DNA of 42,967 nt from a virus (Duplodnaviria > Caudoviricetes): positions 1-42,967 of IMG/VR virus record IMGVR_UViG_3300016643_000319. One strand, 5' to 3'. Within the stretch, counting starts at the first letter, position 1; each line of letters starts with the position of its first letter. Below are positions 4,323 to 41,422 of this stretch, piece after piece. Below the pieces are notes generated by a model. The model was given only the letters and a program-made list of their open reading frames with translations. It was not told the origin of the DNA and made no database searches. A program made the position numbers and the translations under genes.

Positions 4323-5600
4323 TCATCTGCAGGCAACCGACCAAAGCTGGTCCAGCTTCGTGGTATAGCTTTGACTCATCATTTCGCGGCGCATACCCCA
4401 AATAGGATTCATCGGCACGCTGGCAGAGCGCAACGTTCCCCTTCCCCATCGCTCGTTGATTTGATCCAGCACCGTCATAACTTTTGTGGCTTCGGCCGGC
4501 TGCGATGTTGCAAATAGATCGTCGGTGTACTCACCTGATTGACACAGGTTCAGCAGCATTACTTCGGCCTTGCTGTACCTAAATCCTGGCCGGAAGATTC
4601 GATCAAGCGCGTCGACCGCTGCTTTGGTAAGTAGACGCACGTCATCGGTCGGGTATGGCATGTCCACTAGCACCCCGTTGGCATACTTCGCTTCTTCCGG
4701 GTTGAACATGCCTGTACGGATGCAGACGCGCACCTTCTTGCACAGCGAATTCTGGGCGCGGAGCTTTTCAGAAGCACGCATCATGTAGGTGGCCACCGCC
4801 TCTTTGATAGATGGCAGCTCCGTCAGCCGCTGGCCGAACATGCGACTGCAGCAGATCTCCTGCTTGGGCGGATCCGGTACCTCTAGCTCCAGACAAGGCT
4901 TACCGGCCAGCTCCCTTGCTGTCTTCTCGATCACTACGCTGAACTTCTTGCGGAGGGTCCACGGGTCGGCCTTAGCGAGGTCCATGGCCGACTTAATGCC
5001 CAAGGCGCCAAGATGGAGTTTCATTTTGCGGCCGACACCCCACACCTCTGCCACATCGGTATTGCGCAGCACCCAGTCACGCTTAACCGGGTCGGTGATA
5101 TTTACCACCCCGCCAGTCTGCGACTGCAGACGCTTCGCGGTGTGGTTTGCCAGCTTCGCCAGGGTCTTTGTATGAGCGATGCCAACACCAACAGGAATGC
5201 CGGTGCAGCGAAGTACATGGGCGCGGATCCCTCGGCCCAAGGCATCCAGTCCACCGATGCCAGTCAGGTCGGCGAATGCCTCATCGATGCTATACACCTC
5301 AACTGCCGGTACCATCGCCTCGATCAGGCTCATCACGCGTTCGCTCATGTCACCGTACAGCGCATAGTTGGAGGAGAACGCGACAATGCCGTGCTGCCTG
5401 AGCTTGTGCTTGATCTGGAAATACGGCTCGCCCATCTTGATGAACGGCTTGGCGTCGTAGCTGCGAGCAATGACACAGCCGTCGTTATTGCTCAGCACCA
5501 CGATGGGCACTTTCGCCAGGTCCGGCCGGAACACCCGCTCGCAACTGGCATAGAAGCTGTTGCAGTCGATCAGCGCAAAGGTCGGTTCTTGCTTAGACAT
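4323..5600 (-). CDS. umuC: Y-family DNA polymerase V catalytic subunit (UmuC/RulB)
   Basis: Motifs [25 protein letters not shown] and YSIDEAF; C-terminal [12 protein letters not shown]. Confidence 0.96.
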
Positions 5601-6018
5601 GGCTGCGCACTGTGCTGGTGATCACGCCCCAAATTGACAGCTCATCCCCTTCAAGAACGTAACGCGCCGGGTATTTGGGGTTCTCTGATAGAAGGATCAC
5701 CTCCCGGCCGCGCTTACATAGGCGCTTGCAGACCGGCTCATTATTCAGCAGCGCCACTACCACATGCCCATGAGCAGGCTCAATGGCACGATCCACCACC
5801 GCGAGATCACCTTCGAAGATACCAATCCCCTGCATGCTTTCCCCGGTGATTGCTACCAGGTACACATGCGGTGCGCGGATATTCAGAACCTCATCCAATG
5901 AGATGTGCTGCTCAATATGATCCGCTGCCGGCGATGGAAAACCGGCTGGAACCTGGAACGAGCACATAGGCAGCTTTGCGCCTGCCTCAGCGATAGGACC
6001 TAGAATGGTGAAGCTCAT
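5593..6018 (-). CDS. umuD: Pol V accessory subunit (UmuD/RulA), S24 autopeptidase
   Basis: AGFPSPA cleavage region, GESM serine, CKRL lysine; overlaps the umuC start. Confidence 0.95.
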
Positions 6019-30909: not shown

Positions 30910-31053
30910 TAAGCTGGCAGCCCAGCCGCTAACGCTTTCCCGCGGGTTTCATGCCCCGTGTCCCTCGAATGTCGCCAGGGTCCCAGGCGATTTTTCGGCG
31001 CTTCGTTTTGGCAAGACACGCTACAGACCACGTATTCCGTGGTCTCCAGCGAA

Positions 31054-31398
31054 TCACGCCTGACCACCGCCGGAGGGCGGCACATCGCACACGCCCAACC
31101 GCTTGGCTGCCCAGCGTTCGTACAGGCCGATGGCGACATCGGCGCCGGCCATCGCGGTGAGGCATCCGATGCTCCCTGCCGCCAGGACCGACATGCCCGA
31201 AGCGTGCAGCAACATCATGGTGGAAAGCCCGCAGACCACGCAGGCCCCGGACCGAAGGAGCAAGCGGCGTATCAAGGACCAGCCGCTTACCCCCGCTTTG
31301 TCGGCGCGCCATGCCTCGCCGGATATGCCGCCGACCAGGGACAGTACGATCACCATCCAGATCGGCATATCAATAAGCGCTTGCTGCTCGTTCGTCAT
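31054..31398 (-). CDS. Holin (Pseudomonas phage/tailocin type)
   Basis: 114 aa with 2-3 TM helices; GG.SGE.WRADK and GADVA.GLYERW motifs. Confidence 0.88.
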   Translation of the reverse strand: MTNEQQALIDMPIWMVIVLSLVGGISGEAWRADKAGVSGWSLIRRLLLRSGACVVCGLSTMMLLHASGMSVLAAGSIGCLTAMAGADVAIGLYERWAAKRLGVCDVPPSGGGQA

Positions 31399-31417
31399 CG
31401 CCCTACCCCATAAACGC

Positions 31418-31442
31418 AAAAACCCGGCGCAATGGCCGGGTT
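31418..31442 (-). terminator. Intrinsic terminator in the late (holin) leader, tR'-like
   Basis: Minus strand AACCCGGC-CATTGC-GCCGGGTT-TTT, about 20 nt before the holin start. Confidence 0.75.
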
Positions 31443-31495
31443 CAGTGTGGTGGTGTGTCCCGCTGCTTGCGGTCGCACCTATCGAAGATGGGTAC

Positions 31496-31524
31496 TTTTT
31501 ACAGGTGGATTCCGGTGGCAGCAA
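31496..31524 (-). promoter_or_regulatory. Putative late promoter (pR'-like)
   Basis: Minus strand TTGCTG-N17-TAAAAA upstream of the leader terminator; imperfect consensus. Confidence 0.35.
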
Positions 31525-31622
31525 GGGAGTTTTAATGCCATGGCGCAATAGGGGTGCAATACAGGTATGACGCAGGTGCAACGCAGGGATAACGCACTCA
31601 ATCGGCTATCGCTTCTGGTGCC

Positions 31623-31900
31623 CTGTCTACTTGTCCCACTATTCTGGATCGAAGTAGGACAGCTACAGGCGCCCAAATACGGAGCTCTGCCCTACTGTCC
31701 TACCTTTTTTACTTTTCTCTTGTGTATAGAGAGAAAGTTAAAAGCACGCGTGCGCGCCATGGGCGCGACTACGTGCCCGCTATGCTCATGTGTGCGTGGG
31801 GCGGGTAAAGGTTGGACAGTAGGACAGCCCAGCAACGGCGCGGCCTGCGCCTGTCCAACTGCGCCAGATGGCAGTCGGACAAAGCAGGACAGTAGGACAG
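31623..31900. repeat. Putative replication origin: GGACAG-core iterons in both orientations around an AT-rich tract
   Basis: GTAGGACAG 31654, CTGCCCTACTGTCCTAC 31687, GTTGGACAGTAGGACAG 31811, CTGTCCAAC 31851, and further copies 31874-31900; downstream of the primase-helicase. Confidence 0.55.
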
Positions 31901-31924
31901 AGGCACGCGGAGTGATGCCGAGGA

Positions 31925-32290
31925 TCATGCAGCCTTCCCCATCAGCATCCCTGCGATGTGCAGGTGTGCCTCATGGAGCCGCTGGTAATAGGTATCCCGA
32001 CTGCATCCGCAGTGGGTGTACTTCTGCGACAGGAAGCTTTCGTGGTTGCAGTAGTGCTCGCGTACGACAAGCGACAGCTGCGGCGGCAAGTGCTTGTTGA
32101 CGATCAGCTCAATGTCGGCCGATTCATCCAGCAGCACCCGACTACCCCGCGTGCCACGTATCAACTCTCCTTTGCACTCCATCAGCATGGCGATCATGTT
32201 GCCGCCACTCGGCCCGCCAGAACCGTCCGGCACAGGCGAATGCAGATCCTGCGCCCAAAGTTTGAGCATCTCGTCGATTCGCTTAATCAT
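31925..32290 (-). CDS. Putative late-gene regulator with C-terminal sigma-4-like HTH (Q position)
   Basis: IDEMLKLWA N-terminus and CGCSRDTYYQRLHEAH HTH-like end; last early gene before the late promoter. Confidence 0.7.
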   Translation of the reverse strand: MIKRIDEMLKLWAQDLHSPVPDGSGGPSGGNMIAMLMECKGELIRGTRGSRVLLDESADIELIVNKHLPPQLSLVVREHYCNHESFLSQKYTHCGCSRDTYYQRLHEAHLHIAGMLMGKAA

Positions 32291-34502
32291 CGAAACAAGG
32301 CTCCTCGATCACCGCCTGCTGCAACGCAGACGCTCGCCCCCAGCCCGCAGGCTTTTCATAGGCCCATGGCCTCACTCCGCTTTTTGGCAGCGCGGGCATA
32401 CGCCGCTTGCGCCATCCCAGCCGGTGCATGATCGCCCCGACCCGCATCTGCTCGGGCTTGCCCCAATGGCCGAAGTCCAGCTTCAGCGCCTGGGTCAGGA
32501 TCTCGTTGCCGGTAGCGGTTTCCCCGATCTGCGACTCCTCCATCCAGGCCAGGATTGGCCCTTCCCACTCATCCACCACAAAGCGCTCGTCTTGAGCCTC
32601 GGCGAACATCTTGGATTCGTCCTTGTTCACCCACCAGATATCGCCCGCCTCAAAGCAAAACAGCGCCTCGGCCCACAGCTGATCGCGGATCTCGCGCAGT
32701 TGCTCAAGATCGACCTTGTTGCAGAACACCGGCCAGTAACGACGGTTGCCCGTGGCGTCCTTGAGGTACTCCTCTTGGTTGGTGGTGCCCACGAAAACAC
32801 ACTGGCGTGGCACGTCATTCGTTCTGCGGCCGTAGCTCTCGCGGTAGGTGTCGGTGGACGCAGAGAAGAACTGTTTGGCCTTGGTGCTTTCAGCCTTGTT
32901 GAAACTGTCCAGTTCCCCCAGTTCGACGATCCATTTGCCGCGAATCGCCTGGAAGCTGTCCTTGTCGCCGAGGGCAAATGGCGTATCCATGAACCACTCG
33001 CCACCGAGCACGCCCATGGCCGTGGACTTACCGGCGCCCTGCCCGCCTTCGAGGATCATCACCGAGTCTGCCTTGCAGCCTGGACGCATCACACGGGCAA
33101 CCGCTGAGATGAGCCAGCGCTTACCGACCTTGGCCGAGTACTCACTGGCCTGGACGCCCAGCACGTCGGTCAGCCAGGTTTCAATGCGTGGCACGCGATC
33201 CCATTCCAGCTTCTCCAGGTACTCACGCACCGGGTGGAAAGCGTGGTCGTGGGCAACCACGCTGACCGCCTCGATCACATGGGAGGCTTTGACACGCAGG
33301 TTGTATTGCTGCGCGAGCCACTTCATCACTCGCATGTCGTCAATGTCGGCCCAGTCGCCGGCACCGCCGCCGAAGGGCGCAGACCGCAGCTTGACGATCT
33401 TGGAGCTGAACACGCTGTAGCCGATGACGCCGGCCCAGCGTTCGTCATTGCCCAGGATCAGTTCAACGTTTTGCATGTGCGCGATCAAAGAACCATTTTC
33501 GGTGCGGGCTAGTTGGTCCTTCCAGCCACCCGCTGCAGGAGGCTTGACCACCGCAAGCACCTGGCGGCGGACGGCCTCCAACCCCTCGGCGACGTGCAAG
33601 TCGTTAAAGTCCGTCCACTTAATCTCGCGCTCACCGGAGAACACCGGGGCGACGACTTGACCTCCGACAACCAGCGCGGCGTTGTTGGCTTTCTCTTCAC
33701 CAGGGTTCCAAGGGTCACCGTTGGGGCGCTTGGTTTTCCAGTCGTCATCGCGACAGATGATCAGCGGGCAGCCGGGGAAGCGCTCGCGCATTGCCTTGGA
33801 GACTGGCAGCAGGTTACCCGCGTCGAAGGCGATAGCAACAGTGAGCGACGTCGCCATGTGCAGGCTTGCGCCTGTGGCGTAGCCCTCACACACCAGCACC
33901 GGTTCGCCGGGCTCTGGGTGAGGGCCGATCAGGTGGAAAGCGCCCTCTTTTGACATACCGGGCGGCCAGTACTGCTTATCCCGCCCAGTGTCTTCTTGCT
34001 TGGCTGGGAAGATCACCTGCAGGCCGACAATCTGGTCGCGGACGTTGCACATGGGCACCAAAAATGCGCCAGTACGTGGCGCATAGCGAACCTTGAAGCC
34101 GACGATCTGTTTTCGATCCAGATAGGCGCTCTTACCCTTTTCGGGCATGCGCTTGAACAGGCCGGCAGCACGGTTGGCCGCTCGGCGTGATGCGTTGGCC
34201 GCGATCTCGGCAGCCTTACGCTTGGCATCCTCCTGCCGAGCGCGCATGACTTCGCGCTCCTCGGGGCTCATACGTCCGGGTTTAACTTTGATCTTCTGGG
34301 TATCGCCAGAGCGCCAGTCACCGAAGCTGCCGAAGATCAGCGTCTCGTTCTTTTCAGTGCGGTGTTCGTGAATGACGTACCAGCCGTTTTTTTCCTTGCC
34401 TTTGTCCTGGGTAGTTTTGCAGCGGGTAAGCTTGCCAAATACCAAGGGTTGAGCGGGCTCAAGACCATAGTCCGCGAACTGATTGATCACATCATCGAGC
34501 AT
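32283..34502 (-). CDS. Primase (TOPRIM) fused to VirE/VapE-type helicase
   Basis: CEGYATG and ICRDDD (TOPRIM), DFND, Walker A GGQGAGKS, GTTN and TGNRR.W; start MLDDVIN. Confidence 0.92.
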   Translation of the reverse strand: MLDDVINQFADYGLEPAQPLVFGKLTRCKTTQDKGKEKNGWYVIHEHRTEKNETLIFGSFGDWRSGDTQKIKVKPGRMSPEEREVMRARQEDAKRKAAEIAANASRRAANRAAGLFKRMPEKGKSAYLDRKQIVGFKVRYAPRTGAFLVPMCNVRDQIVGLQVIFPAKQEDTGRDKQYWPPGMSKEGAFHLIGPHPEPGEPVLVCEGYATGASLHMATSLTVAIAFDAGNLLPVSKAMRERFPGCPLIICRDDDWKTKRPNGDPWNPGEEKANNAALVVGGQVVAPVFSGEREIKWTDFNDLHVAEGLEAVRRQVLAVVKPPAAGGWKDQLARTENGSLIAHMQNVELILGNDERWAGVIGYSVFSSKIVKLRSAPFGGGAGDWADIDDMRVMKWLAQQYNLRVKASHVIEAVSVVAHDHAFHPVREYLEKLEWDRVPRIETWLTDVLGVQASEYSAKVGKRWLISAVARVMRPGCKADSVMILEGGQGAGKSTAMGVLGGEWFMDTPFALGDKDSFQAIRGKWIVELGELDSFNKAESTKAKQFFSASTDTYRESYGRRTNDVPRQCVFVGTTNQEEYLKDATGNRRYWPVFCNKVDLEQLREIRDQLWAEALFCFEAGDIWWVNKDESKMFAEAQDERFVVDEWEGPILAWMEESQIGETATGNEILTQALKLDFGHWGKPEQMRVGAIMHRLGWRKRRMPALPKSGVRPWAYEKPAGWGRASALQQAVIEEPCFDD

Positions 34503-34719
34503 AACGGGCAGCCCTCTGATCATCGACGGTCTTGCACTCAATGCAGAGCGTGCAACCGGGCTGTGCCAAACGACGGGCCTCTGGGATAGGGCCGTCGCAT
34601 TCTTCACAGAACATCAGGGAATGCTGAGCCGTGTTGGACATCAGCGCCAGGCGTGCAGCGACGGCTTGATCGATGCGCTCTTGCACCAGATCATTTGCGA
34701 AGTCAGCGATATCAGCCAC
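34492..34719 (-). CDS. TraR/DksA C4 zinc-finger protein
   Basis: DIAD acidic tip and CEEC...IPEARR...CTLCIEC. Confidence 0.9.
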   Translation of the reverse strand: MADIADFANDLVQERIDQAVAARLALMSNTAQHSLMFCEECDGPIPEARRLAQPGCTLCIECKTVDDQRAARYAR

Positions 34720-35230
34720 GTTCCACCCCACAAGTCGTCTGATTGACGTAGCGGGCGCGGTTATACATGCCTAACAACCCCTGAATGCCTCGAAACACCA
34801 ACTGGCGTATCTCAGCCAGCTCACGGTCATCGACCTTGCCGTCGCCAATGTGCTTGGCCCAGGTTTCGGACAAATCAGCAACCTGCCGGAAAAACATGGC
34901 GATACCCGTGGTAAGGGTCTCAGGCATGTCATTGGTATACGCCTCAGCCAGTTCCTGCCAGATCGTGTCGCCGACAAGGGCGTGCACCGCATCGAGAATG
35001 CGGCGGTCCTTGGTCAGTTCGAGGATCTCGCCGAACTCCTGGATGTTGACGGTGTGCGAGGGATGGGTGGGAGACAACTTGTGTTGCAACGTGGTGGCAT
35101 TGCGGCCGGTGGTGGCGGCGATTGCGGCGGCACCGCCGGGATAGTCCCGTGCGGCGTGGTACAAGGCTAATTCGAGCGTCAGTACTTCCTTTTGCGCTCG
35201 ATCAACACAGCTTAAAGCTACTCGGCTCAT
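34712..35230 (-). CDS. Phage regulatory CII-like protein
   Basis: YPGG..AIA...TLQHKLSP HTH and DG.VD..E motif; downstream of cro. Confidence 0.8.
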   Translation of the reverse strand: MSRVALSCVDRAQKEVLTLELALYHAARDYPGGAAAIAATTGRNATTLQHKLSPTHPSHTVNIQEFGEILELTKDRRILDAVHALVGDTIWQELAEAYTNDMPETLTTGIAMFFRQVADLSETWAKHIGDGKVDDRELAEIRQLVFRGIQGLLGMYNRARYVNQTTCGVERG

Positions 35231-35260
35231 GGCATTAATCCTACTAAGTTGCCAGTGCCC

Positions 35261-35522
35261 CGCGACGTGTAGTGGTGATACATTTGCCGCGTGGCTTGAA
35301 AGGGCCCAAACGCCGGCAAGATCTAGGGATCGAAACCGGCACCGTGCCGAGGCGAACAATCCGTTGCTCTCCTCTGGCGCAACAGCTGCCTAATCTGTGG
35401 TGGAAAAGGCAGCAACCCAAGACATCCGTGTCTTGGCAGCGCGATAAAGGGAGGTGGTTTGCATGTGGTGTGCCCTCCTACCTTCGTCGCGACCCGACAG
35501 CACTGTGGTGGTGTGTGCCGGG
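35261..35522. ncRNA. Candidate structured RNA in the cro-cII spacer (at least six hairpins); strand unresolved
   Basis: Hairpins at 35268-35282, 35355-35368, 35385-35413, 35417-35436, 35441-35490 and 35493-35522. Four have GTGGTG/CACCAC loops and two have TCCG/CGGA loops. Confidence 0.5.
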
Positions 35523-35530
35523 AGAAACTG

Positions 35531-35554
35531 GGCGGCCCTAGGGTCGCCTTTTTT
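35531..35554 (+). terminator. Intrinsic terminator oriented against the pR transcript
   Basis: GGCGGCCC-TA-GGGTCGCC-TTTTTT. The G-U pair and U-tract both favour the + strand. Confidence 0.7.
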
Positions 35555-35558
35555 CTAT

Positions 35559-35819
35559 CTACGCTGCAGCTTTCTGCGGGGCCGATGCGTTGAGCAACCA
35601 GGCAGCGTCAAACGCGTTGCCCTTTTGCTCAGCGGCGGTCGCTAAGAGTTTTGCGTAGTGGGTTTCACCGGTGTAATCGGTGCGTGGAAGGCTGGCAGCC
35701 AAGCGCCATTTATTGAGTGCTTGGTAACTCCTGTCACATACCTTGGCGGCGGCTCCGATGCCGCCTACTGCTTCAAATGCGAACGCGATGGCGTTCGGAA
35801 AATCTGCGGGGTCCAACAT
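35559..35819 (-). CDS. Cro-like repressor
   Basis: 86 aa with HTH GGIGAAAKVCDRSYQALNKW; divergent from cI; GGAGG upstream. Confidence 0.85.
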   Translation of the reverse strand: MLDPADFPNAIAFAFEAVGGIGAAAKVCDRSYQALNKWRLAASLPRTDYTGETHYAKLLATAAEQKGNAFDAAWLLNASAPQKAAA

Positions 35820-35832
35820 GGCAACCTCCATT

Positions 35833-35907
35833 TATCAACTCGCGGTTGATATTAACATCAACTGACTATTGCGCAAGCCCTATGAGAGTATCAACTCATG
35901 GTTGATA
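35833..35907. promoter_or_regulatory. Right operator region OR (three 17-bp sites)
   Basis: ATCAAC-TCGCG-GTTGAT (35834-35850), degenerate ATCAAC-TGACT-ATTGCG (35857-35873) and ATCAAC-TCATG-GTTGAT (35890-35906, covering the cI ATG). Confidence 0.85.
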
Positions 35908-36623
35908 AGAATGAGCTACGGGCAGCTTTCACGGCGCGCCTTCACGAAGCACTCGACGATGCCGGTGTACGCACCCGGGGGCGTGGGGTGGATATTCATA
36001 AGCATTTGGTAGCGGTAGGGGCTGAAAAAAGCACTCAGGCCATCAGTAAATGGCTGAATGGGGAGTCAATACCTGAGGCTGACAGCATGGTTGTGCTGTG
36101 TTCATGGTTGAAGGTGCGAAGGGAGTGGCTGGAGTACGGCGTACTGCCGAAAGAGCAAACCGGCGATAGTAATGTCCGTCAGTTCGGAGCTGTGGGCGAA
36201 AGTAATGTCCGTGAGGTAACTCGGCAGTTTGGAAAAGTCCCGCTGATTTCGTGGGTGCAGGCAGGTGCATGGTGCGAGTCGAATTTTGAGCAACATGACG
36301 ATGAATCGTGGCTATCCTGCCCCGTGCCTATCAGTGAAAGTGGTTATGCGCTAAGAGTGCTTGGGGACTCCATGACGAATCCTGGGCCAGGTCGTAGCTA
36401 CCCAACGGGATGCATTATTTTTGTTGATCCAGAGGCCGAAACAAAAACAGGAGATAGAGTAATTGCGAGAGTTCCACGAACTAATGAAGCCACATTTAAA
36501 ATATTAGTTGAAGATGCTGGCCGGCAGTTTCTGAGACCAATAAATCCGCAATATCCAATCATTGATATTACGGAGGAAACTCATATTTGCGGAAAAGTGG
36601 TCGGATCTTTTATTCCTGAGTGA
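35898..36623 (+). CDS. cI: CI-like repressor, HTH + S24 peptidase
   Basis: STQAISKWLNG HTH, VQAG cleavage site, GDSM serine and TFK lysine. Confidence 0.93.
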   Translation: MVDKNELRAAFTARLHEALDDAGVRTRGRGVDIHKHLVAVGAEKSTQAISKWLNGESIPEADSMVVLCSWLKVRREWLEYGVLPKEQTGDSNVRQFGAVGESNVREVTRQFGKVPLISWVQAGAWCESNFEQHDDESWLSCPVPISESGYALRVLGDSMTNPGPGRSYPTGCIIFVDPEAETKTGDRVIARVPRTNEATFKILVEDAGRQFLRPINPQYPIIDITEETHICGKVVGSFIPE

Positions 36624-37449
36624 GCTGATTTATATTTCGAATTTGCCTTGCATAGTATCGTCCTTCAACGCTCCTCCATGAAAAACCATTTTGAAAATAG
36701 TGAAGAGCATGAGCATAAAGAGCGTCAACAGACACGCTCGCTTTACGGCCAAAATCCCTAATTTTCTTATTCACAAATCTTAACACTGCGGACTGTAGGA
36801 AATGCCCTCTCATTAGCAGCACTACTGGAACACTCTCAATTAATTTGTAGTCGTCATCAGTGCATACAATGCCATGGTCCATGTGTAGCCTCTCCAAGTG
36901 TTGGTTCAGGCTTAAATGATCAATCTCTTCAGAGGTTCTACTCATCATAAATTTTTGGCAATGCCCCGCCCCAACATCAATCTCAAGCCCTTTTCTAAAA
37001 TTCACAAAATCAAGGTGAAATAGCGGACCAACGAGATCTGAAAACCGTCCCAACCAGCTATCTACGTCTTTAAGACAGTCGATATCTTTCTTCGACCAAA
37101 AACCAATAACAGATGATATAAGATCCGACTTGTAAATAGTATTTTCTATTGAATAACCAAAAGTATATAGGACTCTTGGATGACGGACGAACCCAGGAAC
37201 ATACCTTGTATAATCTGAATCTTGAGCCACCAGACAGGTTAGATCCCCACCTTTAACCTTATCGACATAAGGTTGTAACTCATTAACTCCGCCAACCGGT
37301 CGTATATCAACAGTAAGGTTAGAGCATTTTTCGAACACCGTTCGCCAAAAGAGCACATCATCGTCGCCCTCTACAAACAAAATATGATCGCACTCCATAA
37401 AAGCATCAAGTGCATTCAAAGCATCATCAGAATACTCAAGCGCTGACAC
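36610..37449 (-). CDS. ariB: DUF4435/TOPRIM-like effector, PARIS AriB-like
   Basis: FVEGDDD..FW, QDSDY (DxD), GYSIEN and RGH motifs; overlaps the upstream ATPase gene. AT-rich. Confidence 0.78.
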   Translation of the reverse strand: MSALEYSDDALNALDAFMECDHILFVEGDDDVLFWRTVFEKCSNLTVDIRPVGGVNELQPYVDKVKGGDLTCLVAQDSDYTRYVPGFVRHPRVLYTFGYSIENTIYKSDLISSVIGFWSKKDIDCLKDVDSWLGRFSDLVGPLFHLDFVNFRKGLEIDVGAGHCQKFMMSRTSEEIDHLSLNQHLERLHMDHGIVCTDDDYKLIESVPVVLLMRGHFLQSAVLRFVNKKIRDFGRKASVSVDALYAHALHYFQNGFSWRSVEGRYYARQIRNINQLTQE

Positions 37450-38710
37450 GGAGTATTGCTCCCATATTTATAATGTCCTTCTTATATTTACCAGCAACTT
37501 CAGGAGAATGGGTTGCAACGATAATTTGGGCGTTGGGATTTAGCTCTCGAATAGCAGGGATAATATTTCTCTGCCATTCAATGTGAAGAGATAACTCTGG
37601 CTCATCAGCCAAAAAAACATAAGGTTTCTGTCTCTGGAGCAGAGCCTCTACAAAAAGAATAATCAATTGCTTTTCGCCAGATGACAAACGCTCAACAGGA
37701 ATTCTTGCATCAGATCCTGACTCAAGAACGTTTACACGGTAAATTGCTAACTTCCCAGAACTATCAATCCTGAAATCCTTACCAACTATAAACTTCGATA
37801 AAAGCTGAAGAAAACTATTTGCATGACTATATAGCTCTTTAGTCTTTTTCTCGGCCTTCAAAGACATATTAAAAACGTTGTGAACTCTTTCCGCAGCGTC
37901 AAGCGCCTCAAGATCGATCGAATTCCAATCAGGAGGATCTACTCGATACAAACTAACAGCTTCTTTAACCAATCCTAAATGCTCATTAATCCGCTTATTA
38001 ACTTCGGAATCCAATATGCCTAAATTCTTATAAACCGAGATGAGATCTTTTCTTTGTCTATCCTCGTCAAAATCAGAAGCAAAAACATTTCTAACTTTTT
38101 CTTCACGGCGGTAGAGTAGAGAAGTCAAAACTTCCTTCTGCAAACCTACAGATATATTACGAGAGGCCTGAGATAATTCCAATTGATACTCAGTCAACCC
38201 CCTCATTAAACTTTCGAGATGCAAATCTACCGGACCTAGGATGCGCTTCCTTTCTTTCAAATCTACATCAAGGCTGGCGCGCAGCCTATAAACGGACAAC
38301 GAAGCGACGCACACTATTTCACTTAGGGCTTCCTGAACGCCAGATATGAGATCTAACGCCCTTCTGCGCGCCATACTCCCATATCTAACCTCCTCCCCAA
38401 AAACCAATGGGAAAGCATAGGAGTTTCGTGAGACATTATAATGAATAGAAAAAAAGTTTTCCTGCAACTCCTTCTTAACCTTGACAGTTTTTGTGTGCTT
38501 CCCTTTGCGCAACTTTATAACAACCTGCTTGAATTCATTTTCTTCAAGAGCTATAGGATCAACATTAAGAACGGCGCTTAGCACATTCATAAAAGTAGTT
38601 TTACCGGTACCATTTTTCCCGATAATAATATTTACATCACCACCGAATGTAGTAGAGGCCGTAAAATCTTGCCAAAACCCATCAATGGAAACTTCTGCAA
38701 TTTTATACAT
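37436..38710 (-). CDS. ariA: ABC/AAA_21-type ATPase sensor, PARIS AriA-like
   Basis: Walker A GKNGTGKT, signature LSSGEKQ, Walker B LADEPELSLH and ATHSP; start MYKIAEV. AT-rich. Confidence 0.8.
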   Translation of the reverse strand: MYKIAEVSIDGFWQDFTASTTFGGDVNIIIGKNGTGKTTFMNVLSAVLNVDPIALEENEFKQVVIKLRKGKHTKTVKVKKELQENFFSIHYNVSRNSYAFPLVFGEEVRYGSMARRRALDLISGVQEALSEIVCVASLSVYRLRASLDVDLKERKRILGPVDLHLESLMRGLTEYQLELSQASRNISVGLQKEVLTSLLYRREEKVRNVFASDFDEDRQRKDLISVYKNLGILDSEVNKRINEHLGLVKEAVSLYRVDPPDWNSIDLEALDAAERVHNVFNMSLKAEKKTKELYSHANSFLQLLSKFIVGKDFRIDSSGKLAIYRVNVLESGSDARIPVERLSSGEKQLIILFVEALLQRQKPYVFLADEPELSLHIEWQRNIIPAIRELNPNAQIIVATHSPEVAGKYKKDIINMGAILRVSA

Positions 38711-38826
38711 CCAAAATCCCTTTCCAATGTGCAGTTTTATCACTACATGATGATTCATATTTATAGTGGCGGAATGCTAGCTCGAGTGAGCACGGATGTC
38801 ATGGAAAAACCTCTCGGACGTGAAAA

Positions 38827-38867
38827 ATCAACCAATAGTTGACACAAAACAACCATTGGTTGATATT
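38827..38867 (+). promoter_or_regulatory. Left operator OL and pL-like promoter
   Basis: ATCAAC-CAATA-GTTGAC (38827-38843) and AACAAC-CATTG-GTTGAT (38848-38864) overlap TTGACA-N17-GATATT (38839-38867). Confidence 0.85.
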
Positions 38868-38902
38868 TGCTTCACTCTTCCACCACAGAGCGATGCAAAA
38901 CC

Positions 38903-39079
38903 ATGCACACCACAGCTACCCTGCACGTCCACCCGACCGCTGCTAATCCCTCCCGCATCTTTGAAATCCGCCGCCTGGCGCAAGACCTTGGCTGCAAATT
39001 CATCGTGTCCAAACCTAAGCCGAAAGAACGCAACGCGCCCTGCCCGTTCGATCCAAACGGCGGAGGGCACGCGGCATGA
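38903..39079 (+). CDS. Small basic protein, first gene of the pL operon (lambda N position)
   Basis: 58 aa; its stop overlaps the next ATG (ATGA). The RBS is weak. Confidence 0.65.
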   Translation: MHTTATLHVHPTAANPSRIFEIRRLAQDLGCKFIVSKPKPKERNAPCPFDPNGGGHAA

Positions 39080-39657
39080 GCAAGTACAAACTCGACAACC
39101 GTACCCTTACCCTGCTCAAGGCCCAGGTAAACCTGACCGAAACCTTCAACCACCTGCTGCGTGCCGAAGTTCAGCGTGAGGCCCTAGCCTTCCGCCTGAA
39201 AGTTGAGCGCCGCAAAGCCGACACACACTTCACTGTTGAGCTGGGAAGCGAACGCCACACGCTGACCCTGACCAACAGCAAGAAAATGCACCTTAAGCTT
39301 GCGGATTTCATCGAGGAGATCGTCAACGGGCCCGCCGACCCAAGCGGTGCGTCGTCTATACCGCACGCAGACCGCCGCTACGGCGTGTTCAAAACTGAAC
39401 ACAAGCAGCGCGTGTTCGATCTGGTGCAAACCGGCGGCGCGCTGACGCTCGATATGGGATTTGAGCAACCTATCAACCTGGCAATCCATCGCAACAAAAC
39501 ACGCACTGGCATCACCACCATCATGAGCATCGGTGTCAAGAAGCCATTCAGCAAGTGCTTCACGGTGTGCGGCAGTGACGTGGAGATCTACTCCATGGTG
39601 GCCGAATCCATCACCCACCTGGCAGCCGTGGCGACTCCAGCCGCGCATGCAGCCTAG
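39076..39657 (+). CDS. Hypothetical early protein
   Basis: 193-aa ORF with GGAGG RBS, translationally coupled to the previous gene. Confidence 0.75.
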   Translation: MSKYKLDNRTLTLLKAQVNLTETFNHLLRAEVQREALAFRLKVERRKADTHFTVELGSERHTLTLTNSKKMHLKLADFIEEIVNGPADPSGASSIPHADRRYGVFKTEHKQRVFDLVQTGGALTLDMGFEQPINLAIHRNKTRTGITTIMSIGVKKPFSKCFTVCGSDVEIYSMVAESITHLAAVATPAAHAA

Positions 39658-39666
39658 GAGGCCGAA

Positions 39667-39951
39667 ATGGAACGTAGCCTGGATAAAGCCGCCAAGTACT
39701 TCGGCCTCACCCGCCCAAAGCTGATCGCGCTGATGCGTGAGAAGGGCTTGCTCACTGAGCGCAACCTTCCGGCGTTCCCTGTACGGGACCGGGAATACCT
39801 GCGGATCAAGAACGGCAACTGGTACCACGAGACGGCCGGAATGCAATACAGCCAGTCGACGAAGGTACGGCAAGCCGGCATGCCCTGGCTGGCAAGTCAG
39901 CTGGGCCTCGAACTGCCAGCCATCCCGGCAGACAACCGTGACGTGGCCTAG
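39667..39951 (+). CDS. Antirepressor KilAC-like DNA-binding protein
   Basis: AAK.FGL.RPKL...MREKG.L...and T.V...G..WLA pattern; AGGAGG RBS. Confidence 0.75.
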   Translation: MERSLDKAAKYFGLTRPKLIALMREKGLLTERNLPAFPVRDREYLRIKNGNWYHETAGMQYSQSTKVRQAGMPWLASQLGLELPAIPADNRDVA

Positions 39952-40156
39952 GGAGTACGCCCGCCAGATCGTCGCCATGCACACACGCGAGAAGCGCAAT
40001 GCCGCGCTCCTCGAAGTGCCGGAGCATCTGCGGGAGCTGACCAAACGCCACTGCCTGAATGCCTGGAGTCACCCCTCACGACTAAAACGCAAGGAGGCCG
40101 CTGCCCATGAGCAACAACAGTCAAACACCGCTACGGCTGCAACCCGCGCCGGATAG
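39938..40156 (+). CDS. Small hypothetical protein
   Basis: GTG-start ORF WPREYARQIV...AALLEVPEHLR, filling the gap and overlapping both neighbours. Confidence 0.55.
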   Translation: MTWPREYARQIVAMHTREKRNAALLEVPEHLRELTKRHCLNAWSHPSRLKRKEAAAHEQQQSNTATAATRAG

Positions 40157-40433
40157 CGCAACCGTCGAGATGCTGCACCAACTCTTCGGCGACGTGCTTA
40201 TCCCCCTGGAAAAGCTGCGCGTGCATTACTTCAAGAACCTCAACGAGAAGACCTTCACCGAGGCGATCAACAGCGGGCGTATTCAACTTCCGGTGACAAC
40301 CTTGGACCACAGCGTCAAGGCTATCCGGTATGCCCACATCAAACACGTCGCAGCACTGATCGACATCCGCGCTTACCGAGCGGACGAAGACATGCCCCGG
40401 CCACAAAACGATTCAACCGAGCAAGACCAGTAA
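40107..40433 (+). CDS. Pyocin activator PrtN-family protein
   Basis: T...L...FG..LIPLE.L...YF, I..G.I.LPV and H..HVA..ID pattern; AGGAGG RBS. Confidence 0.8.
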   Translation: MSNNSQTPLRLQPAPDSATVEMLHQLFGDVLIPLEKLRVHYFKNLNEKTFTEAINSGRIQLPVTTLDHSVKAIRYAHIKHVAALIDIRAYRADEDMPRPQNDSTEQDQ

Positions 40434-40481
40434 CCCAGACGGCTGCCACCACCAGCCACGAAACTACCAGGAGCACACCAC

Positions 40482-40883
40482 ATGACTGCAATTCAAATTT
40501 GCGCACTGATCAGCATCGTAATCGCCGCCGGTATCCTCTATTGGGTCGGGTATCGAGGCGGCCTCACTGACGGCAAAAATGATGGCTACGAAGAAGGCTA
40601 TTCCGACGGCTACGTCTTGGGCCGGGACGAAGCTTCAGCCGCATACGCAGCCTCTATCAAAGCAATGTCAGATCAATGCATGCGAACTGAACTCCTATTG
40701 AGCCGGGAACCGCAAGACCGTTACACACTTCTCGCCATTGCCGAAAAGCTGAAGCTCGCCGCAGACACTTTCCGCGCCGTTAGATCCGAAAGCCAAGCAA
40801 CTCAGGCACTTGCCCTACGTGAAAAAGCACTGAACATGGCTGCGCTGATGGATCGTTTCGAACTGAAGGGGGAAGCCGCATGA
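40482..40883 (+). CDS. Hypothetical protein with N-terminal TM and GxxxG(Y) repeats
   Basis: Hydrophobic N-terminus, then GYRGGLTDGKNDGYEEGYSDGY; AGGAG RBS. Confidence 0.75.
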   Translation: MTAIQICALISIVIAAGILYWVGYRGGLTDGKNDGYEEGYSDGYVLGRDEASAAYAASIKAMSDQCMRTELLLSREPQDRYTLLAIAEKLKLAADTFRAVRSESQATQALALREKALNMAALMDRFELKGEAA

Positions 40884-41422
40884 ACTGGATCCTCACCTCC
40901 ACTGGCAAGCGCTTCGATCTGTTCGAGCCCGACGCCGACATGATCGACCCACGGGACATCTCGCACTCGCTGGCCCACCTGTGCCGCTTCAACGGCCACA
41001 CCCTCGAGTTCTACAGCGTGGCCCAACACAGCTGCATCGTCGCCGAGCAGGTGCCGGAAGAGTACAAGCTCGCGGCCTTGCTCCACGATGCCGCCGAGGC
41101 GTACGTGGGTGACATGACTCGGCCACTCAAGCAGTGGATTAGCGCTTACCAGCACTTCGAGGACTGCATCTGGTGGCGCATTTGCGAGCGGTTCGACATC
41201 GCTCCAAAACTCCCCGCCTGCATCTACAAGGCCGACTTGATTGCGCTGGCGACCGAACGCCGAGACCTCATGCCAACCGATCCGGCTATCTGGGATTGCT
41301 TGGTCGGCATCGAACCCATGGCCGAAACCATCCGCCCTTGGCCTGCAGCAGAAGCTCGACTTACCTATCACCAGCGCCTGATGGACCAACTCGCTATCGA
41401 ACACCGGAGGAAAGCGGCATGA
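40880..41422 (+). CDS. HD-domain phosphohydrolase (YfdR/YfbR-like deoxynucleotidase)
   Basis: CRFNGH, YSVAQHS, LLHDAAEAY.GD and KAD..AL.TE motifs. Confidence 0.88.
   Translation: MNWILTSTGKRFDLFEPDADMIDPRDISHSLAHLCRFNGHTLEFYSVAQHSCIVAEQVPEEYKLAALLHDAAEAYVGDMTRPLKQWISAYQHFEDCIWWRICERFDIAPKLPACIYKADLIALATERRDLMPTDPAIWDCLVGIEPMAETIRPWPAAEARLTYHQRLMDQLAIEHRRKAA

Follow-up and report, generated by a model that had tools for sequence, protein, structure and literature searches.

Introduction

The C4 RNA of phages P1 and P7 carries two regions, a' and b' (supplement figure of PMC2864571), and the CI RNA of phage P4 pairs with seqA and seqC (as given in PMC4825925). Phage 186 CII activates the promoter pE through an operator of two half-sites and establishes lysogeny, and the CII-controlled set of the lambda type comprises repressor establishment, integrase and late inhibition (both as outlined in PMC8538670); lambda aQ works alongside pRE and pI (in the account of PMC12197685). 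As these sources describe them, the known phage antisense RNAs have a single gene as their target or stay inside one operon. Here we analyse IMG/VR virus record IMGVR_UViG_3300016643_000319 (Duplodnaviria; Caudoviricetes), referred to below as the window, meaning the whole stretch of 42,967 nucleotides (nt); it is the record of a temperate phage of Pseudomonas type. Its lytic messages carry repeated CACCAC loops, and we propose that these loops are probably targets of a multi-target antisense RNA, predicted opposite the gap between cro and cII and activated by CII, which would be C4-like in action without being a C4 member.

Results

CACCAC loops recur in the lytic messages and are conserved

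The original prediction had placed nine CACCAC sites in the lytic transcripts, and all nine are present, reading CACCAC on the inferred transcribed strand. Four lie in the cro-cII gap of the pR message (minus strand), where they fold on the pR strand as hairpin loops, as had been proposed, and stay nearly free of pairing across the ensemble; the cII-proximal one (35272-35277, minus) belongs to a hairpin just upstream of the cII ribosome-binding site (RBS). Four more are on the divergent pL message (plus strand). Target 1 is the loop of the pL leader hairpin (38878-38889), whose 3' arm holds the RBS in most relatives, and target 2 is codons 1-4 of the first pL gene (38905-38914), with ACCA near the start in 183/189 related loci and covariation described below. 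Target 3 is a hairpin with a CCACCAC loop after the PrtN-like gene (40441-40457), and target 4 spans RBS to ATG of gene 40482 (40473-40484), the head of a run that continues with HD hydrolase, Xis and Int genes. The ninth site, target 5 (31446-31458, minus), is the weakest; it stands in the late leader just 5' of a terminator (31418-31443) and is partly base-paired within its own hairpin. The pL and pR leaders share a word, as claimed, although its length is 12 nt (38878-38889 and 35394-35405) and not 11, and the identity of the 13-mers at 31446 and 35504 is exact. In the window, the stretch of pL leader at 38890-38902 has no GAGG ribosome-binding word; most relatives have GAGG in the 3' arm of the hairpin.

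Strand-specific counting in the four non-coding leaders (506 nt) gave ten copies of CACCAC, at eight separate places, against none of GTGGTG. In 2000 dinucleotide shuffles of these leaders, CACCAC averaged 0.87 copies and peaked at 6, a count that no other hexamer surpassed either; the observed count stands above the shuffled background, with some selection bias, as the leader regions were chosen around the finding.

We asked whether the sites are kept in related loci. The loci are related to one another and were partly fetched twice, so that the following counts describe spread and not independent events; one mis-anchored locus (L121) is excluded from all of them. The pL leader loop keeps CACCAC in 185/189 loci, the site after prtN in 150/173 and the cII-proximal loop in 152/204, and at least two CACCAC are present in the gap in all 57 genome loci. 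The late-leader site is the least conserved (0/36 P. aeruginosa-type loci). The P. aeruginosa phages Haddon, U5 and LPPA36 and the Halomonas phage H4907, with CII proteins ~40% identical to that of the window, also have the loops, on different stems, which bears out, in P. aeruginosa and Halomonadaceae phages, the earlier statement that the loop is conserved while the stems differ. Because the loop is kept while the stems change, the motif is likely read as RNA. No known family with a CACCAC loop had been recognised, and the Rfam search agrees: no gathering-score match was obtained in the window or in seven relatives, and none at E ≤ 5 in 31000-41000. A chance origin of the repeats would find some room in the 45 copies of CACCAC in the whole window, which also qualify the enrichment; against the ten copies in the leaders where 0.87 are expected, and with loops kept across such distant phages, this explanation is refuted and its probability is practically nil. 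We conclude that the CACCAC loops are real and are a conserved regulatory code; conservation settles their reality.

An antisense RNA is predicted opposite the cro-cII gap

Identical words on three messages require either a complementary strand or a protein to read them. The plus strand of the gap carries a predicted promoter (35255-35284), with -35 GTGCCC at 35255-35260 and an extended -10, TG-A-TACATT, at 35276-35284, overlapped by the cII-proximal loop of the other strand. Judged from the promoter spacing, an RNA of ~265 nt would start at 35291 and end at 35555, within an intrinsic terminator that faces cro and is present on the antisense strand only (35530-35556, plus). The ordered pattern TGGCA-N15-TGCCA, GTGCCN, TGn-TAnnnT was found in 187/204 loci in its strict form; of the 17 loci without it, four differ by a single base and 13, from Halomonas, keep the palindrome and have a variant -10. 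Among the genome loci it is present in 54/57. The TG extension occurs in 56/59 distinct promoter versions, and the base following TG is variable. An intrinsic terminator in the gap was detected on the antisense strand in 151/203 loci (one too-short locus excluded) and on the sense strand in 0/204; it precedes cro in 150/152 non-aeruginosa Pseudomonas-type loci. The 14 distinct terminator stems contain five G-U and no A-C pairs in the antisense orientation.

The predicted RNA takes the shape of a row of tandem hairpins ending in the terminator (fold z = -3.0), shorter in Halomonas (~140 nt), with compensatory change at 21/78 consensus pairs among 30 relatives. It contains three GUGGUG loops, all on the plus strand. 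Loop A (GUGGUGG, 35394-35405) is perfectly complementary to the pL leader loop over 12 nt; loop B (35462-35473) is complementary over 12 nt to the RBS-to-ATG segment of gene 40482 and over 10 nt to codons 1-4 of gene 38903, the first pL gene; and loop C (35504-35516) is complementary over 13 nt to the late-leader site. Each loop in the window therefore has its own perfect match of 12-13 nt at a leader or start. The loop at 35272 lies outside the predicted RNA and is thus a candidate trans target on the pR mRNA. A small open reading frame of the sense strand starting at loop B was considered and discarded, as it is not conserved (2-47 aa).

Loops and targets change together in Halomonadaceae phages

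In Halomonadaceae, six variants of the promoter-proximal loop occur, and the first pL gene changes with them in its codons 1-4. Across 19 distinct pairs, drawn from 32 loci (L420, which has no first pL gene, was excluded from this count), the flanks of loop and codons agree at 74/76 positions, compared with a mean of 48.4 and a maximum of 67 in 100,000 permutations. When one pair per loop variant was taken, agreement was 24/24, which was reached by 1 of 720 orders. These changes are spread across the CII tree and alter the encoded amino acids. For the most part, CCCACCAC is retained in the other Halomonadaceae loops and in the leader loop. Two different loop words are present in one Halomonadaceae phage, and each matches its own target.

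Instead, a host small RNA might target the motif, or the motif might enhance translation as a C/A-rich element, the complementarity of the gap being a by-product. C/A-rich enhancers are targeted in enterobacteria by G/U-rich host small RNAs (GcvB), and the sites here do cluster at translation starts. However, gap loop and target change together within phages, and a conserved phage promoter and terminator bracket the complementary loops, which makes this explanation highly improbable.

A second comparison comes from loci of the P. guariconensis type, which have two copies of the gap. In the copy nearer to cII, the palindrome and the -10 are gone and short CACCAC loops are kept. The copy with the intact promoter is a better match to the phage's own pL target than the promoterless copy in 13/13 cases (mean 19.4 vs 14.9 nt); since the intact copy adjoins cro, a nut model could also explain this result. 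Tandem duplication of the cro-cII gap was seen ~270-700 nt upstream of cII in L143, L145, L211 and relatives, and L119 has a similar displaced promoter.

The nut sites of lambda and the put sites of HK022 are positioned after pL and after cro. The positions of the CACCAC sites mirror nutL and nutR, and the CCACCAC loops could bind a protein on the mRNA, either as nut-like sites or as translational operators for which the cro-cII array would be an RsmZ-like decoy; the 58-aa product of the first pL gene would then be the N-like candidate, and the opposite promoter a plain pE for cI. Several observations fit such a protein: the sense loops are 7 nt, fully unpaired and hairpin-borne, also at the targets; the promoterless duplicate gap keeps its loops; the sense strand carries RsmA-type loops (below), pointing to RNA-level selection on that strand; and flank covariation is absent within Pseudomonas. 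In contrast, in the one Halomonadaceae phage with two loop words, each word goes with a target of its own, and the antisense unit is terminated before cro in the 150/152 loci given above. Neither is there a conserved sense-strand intrinsic terminator for antitermination to override: intrinsic-type terminators were found in 2/25 representative pL loci (first 3 kb) and in none of the cro-cII gaps, and those in 9/27 pR loci are all ~1 kb or more downstream. The 58-aa protein gave no family or fold match that would support it as an N analogue, and is modelled as a single helix with low confidence (predicted TM score, pTM, 0.40). We regard a protein-binding site as unlikely. Of the options left by the earlier interpretation, the antisense target fits best, with a candidate gene for the RNA in the window, and the nut-like site is weakened by the lack of a conserved downstream intrinsic terminator and by the two loop words that track their own targets.

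A palindrome beside the antisense promoter is a predicted CII site

The palindrome TGGCA-N15-TGCCA at 35230-35254, a predicted CII-binding site of a pE-like promoter, abuts the antisense -35 and overlaps the cII RBS of the other strand. Its half-site centres are at about -59 and -39 relative to the predicted start; the half-sites of 186 CII are at -38 and -58. The cII gene (34712-35230, minus) is of the Phage_CP76 family, that of phage 186 CII (PF06892, E = 1.7e-20; phrog_101), and lies downstream of cro on pR, and the locus shows, as a sequence pattern, the 186 arrangement of a CP76-family cII with a two-half-site operator beside a promoter facing cI. The window has two exact copies of the palindrome and no more: one at the cII start, the other (31516-31540) covering the -35 of the predicted late promoter. 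The predicted late promoter (-35 TTGCTG at 31519-31524, -10 TAAAAA at 31496-31501; 31496-31540, minus, with the palindrome overlap included) has the palindrome after the Q-like gene in 198/199 loci (191 exact). In Halomonadaceae, 11/33 loci have a third palindrome on the pL strand; where int is in view (seven loci), it precedes int by 232-241 nt. This recurrence at the late promoter and the integrase leads us to assign the palindrome to CII, which is the likely binder, and the late-promoter and Halomonadaceae integrase copies would then define a candidate CII regulon.

Alternatively, the antisense RNA could be real and the palindrome read by another regulator, namely the Q-like product of 31925-32290, PrtN or TraR, so that the RNA would serve early shut-off in lytic growth and not lysogeny. 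The near-universal palindrome on the late promoter would suit this. However, overlap with the late -35 suits repression and abutment of the antisense -35 suits activation, the third copy points at the integrase in Halomonadaceae, as in the lambda-like CII set outlined in PMC8538670, and a CP76 relative with a different helix-turn-helix sequence has neither palindrome nor loops (one case). We consider another regulator quite improbable.

The late leader itself (31418-31490, minus), short at ~80 nt between the predicted late promoter and the terminator, has a first hairpin that is conserved in relatives, and might persist as a small stable RNA or act as a sponge.

RsmA/CsrA-type loops on the pR message

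Two ACGGAU hexaloop hairpins, of the RsmA/CsrA type by sequence, are on the pR strand of the gap (35359-35364 and 35424-35429, minus), and each presents the ANGGAN hexaloop on a stem. The ACGGAU hexaloop on a stem is the loop of a high-affinity RsmE site (as described in PMC4005645). ACGGAT was found in 172/202 loops counted. An NNGGAN stem loop is present in 124/152 distinct gaps and in 0/12 distinct Halomonas gaps; the opposite-strand control was not clean (71/152). These loops are a lead to a possible action of host RsmA on this part of the gap.

Gene layout and neighbouring features

The switch region comprises a CI-like S24 repressor gene (35898-36623, plus; family profile matches) and a cro-like repressor gene (35559-35819, minus; phrog_35, E = 1e-4). 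On pR the order is cro-like gene, CP76-family cII, TraR, primase-helicase, a 121-aa gene at the Q position (31925-32290), holin and terminase; the label Q-like refers to this gene position and to the annotation of the counterpart gene in Halomonas phage H4907. Short GGACAG/CTGTCC repeats are clustered past the Q-like gene (31640-31900, seven matches), possibly as origin iterons for the primase-helicase. The divergent pL operon follows a predicted promoter, TTGACA-17-GATATT (38839-38867, plus, by sequence), and contains the 58-aa gene (38903-39079, plus), to which no family is assigned and whose stop overlaps the start of the next gene, then a KilAC antirepressor-like gene downstream of it (39667-39951, plus), a PrtN/Xis-like gene, gene 40482, HD hydrolase, Xis and Int. 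Between cI and pL, an AAA ATPase and DUF4435/TOPRIM pair (36610-38758, minus) is replaced by other DNA in relatives and has the look of a swappable defence cassette. A UmuDC-like pair (IMS polymerase and S24 peptidase) is at the left end of the record (4323-6018). The order of PrtN, S24 repressor, TraR zinc finger, Q-like gene and holin in 30929-40433 resembles that of the P. aeruginosa pyocin regulatory locus, to which it may be linked; PF11112 was found in no control genome, and a literature search on this link returned unrelated papers.

Discussion

We propose that CII, made early from pR, would bind TGGCA-N15-TGCCA beside the antisense -35 and activate a promoter that fires at ~35291, with transcription ending at the terminator facing cro. 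The three GUGGUG loops of the product would start loop-loop (kissing) pairing with exposed CCACCAC loops, which stand as paired sites 27-29 nt apart at two pL starts, those of gene 38903 and gene 40482. By covering the start codon or first codons the RNA would block translation and favour lysogeny; the runs blocked would be that from gene 38903 to the antirepressor-like gene and that from gene 40482 to Xis and Int. This repressive sign is suggested by the position of the targets. The pR message, paired in cis by full complementarity and at the cII-RBS loop in trans, would have damped expression of cII, primase and Q. The late leader is perhaps a further target of the RNA, and CII on the palindrome at the late -35 could repress late transcription directly.

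A number of results weigh against this proposal. The antisense RNA is a prediction from sequence, and the relatedness of the loci, noted above, tempers every count. Chance matches to the gap exist as well, for three unrelated 12-mers, so that position, and not match length, carries the weight. Within Pseudomonas, loop A and the pL leader loop show no covariation in their flanks (180 vs a permutation mean of 180.3; 32 distinct pairs), and fluorescens-type targets are matched just as well by P. aeruginosa-type RNAs as by the RNAs of their own type (23.5 vs 21.7). Even in Halomonadaceae, one loop-target mismatch is present in 6/32 loci. The strict terminator script found no antisense terminator in any of 38 P. 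aeruginosa-type loci and none in 12/13 Halomonas loci; in the P. aeruginosa group the loops may ride on a longer transcript that reads to cI. The alignment-based choice of strand for the loop hairpins, by G-U against A-C pairs, was tied (14:9, 4:3, 1:3 and 5:9), with pL and post-prtN controls that gave too few pairs for use; the tie fits structure on both strands and is not support for the antisense strand. Another strand test, with free stem extension, did not pass its control of known sense and was set aside for the loop hairpins. CACCAC on the sense strand is more open than the GUGGUG words are on the antisense strand, and this holds most of all for loop C. Finally, this CII resembles the solved 186 CII weakly in sequence (E = 0.24).

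A bolder extension of the proposal is that a CII establishment promoter has been turned from making CI to making a modular silencing RNA, each loop of which is an independently evolving guide for one lytic start, and that the RsmA sites on the complementary pR message let the host Gac/Rsm state act on the lysis-lysogeny choice via one and the same stretch of 300 bases. We offer this tentatively and think it rather doubtful as a whole.

If the proposed RNA is real, widespread temperate phages of Pseudomonas and Halomonadaceae, with Haddon, U5, LPPA36 and H4907 as cultured members, would use a CII-controlled RNA layer for deciding between lysis and lysogeny, in which one transcript with several loops would reach targets in different operons. 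The natural loop-target variants, together with the predicted operator, promoter and RNA ends, are suited to compensatory tests. Our literature search found no description of a CACCAC or antisense element of this kind, though one may exist in supplements or subscription papers. In the H4907 genome paper, antisense, small RNA and promoter are not mentioned, and the main text of the motif-discovery papers does not mention phage or Pseudomonas, with supplements that could bear on novelty.

The locus shares features with several described systems. It is similar to lambda nut and HK022 put in having sites after pL and after cro, and differs in the further copies at start codons and the lack of conserved downstream intrinsic terminators; no N-like protein was found. 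With RsmY/RsmZ-type decoys and RsmA/CsrA sites it shares the ACGGAU hexaloops on stems of the pR strand, which match the high-affinity RsmE site (PMC4005645); in this locus the hexaloops take turns with CCACCAC loops within a phage message, and the Halomonas relatives have none. Lambda aQ and OOP and P22 sar have a comparable purpose, antisense control of the lysis-lysogeny choice. They act on one overlapping gene, whereas the RNA predicted here would act through short loops on several distant targets.

The likeness to 186 pE and lambda pRE lies in a CP76-family CII, a promoter at the cII start that fires back towards cI, and a two-half-site operator (as in PMC8538670). Unlike in those systems, a terminator usually stops the transcript before cro, and the main product would therefore be a small RNA. 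C4 of P1/P7, with its a1b1 targets, and the P4 CI RNA are likewise phage RNAs with more than one single-stranded region that pairs with paired short sites in a phage message, and, as with C4, an antirepressor-like gene is downstream of a small first gene. C4, however, is a multi-stem RNA of ~85 nt with a' and b' (according to PMC2864571), and the RNA predicted here is a row of hairpins of ~265 nt with no match to RF01695. The P4 CI RNA is processed from the transcript that it controls; the RNA of the window would have its own predicted promoter and, in most relatives, its own terminator, on the strand opposite its targets. It would also differ from both in that the targets are in a different, divergent operon and in its predicted dependence on CII.

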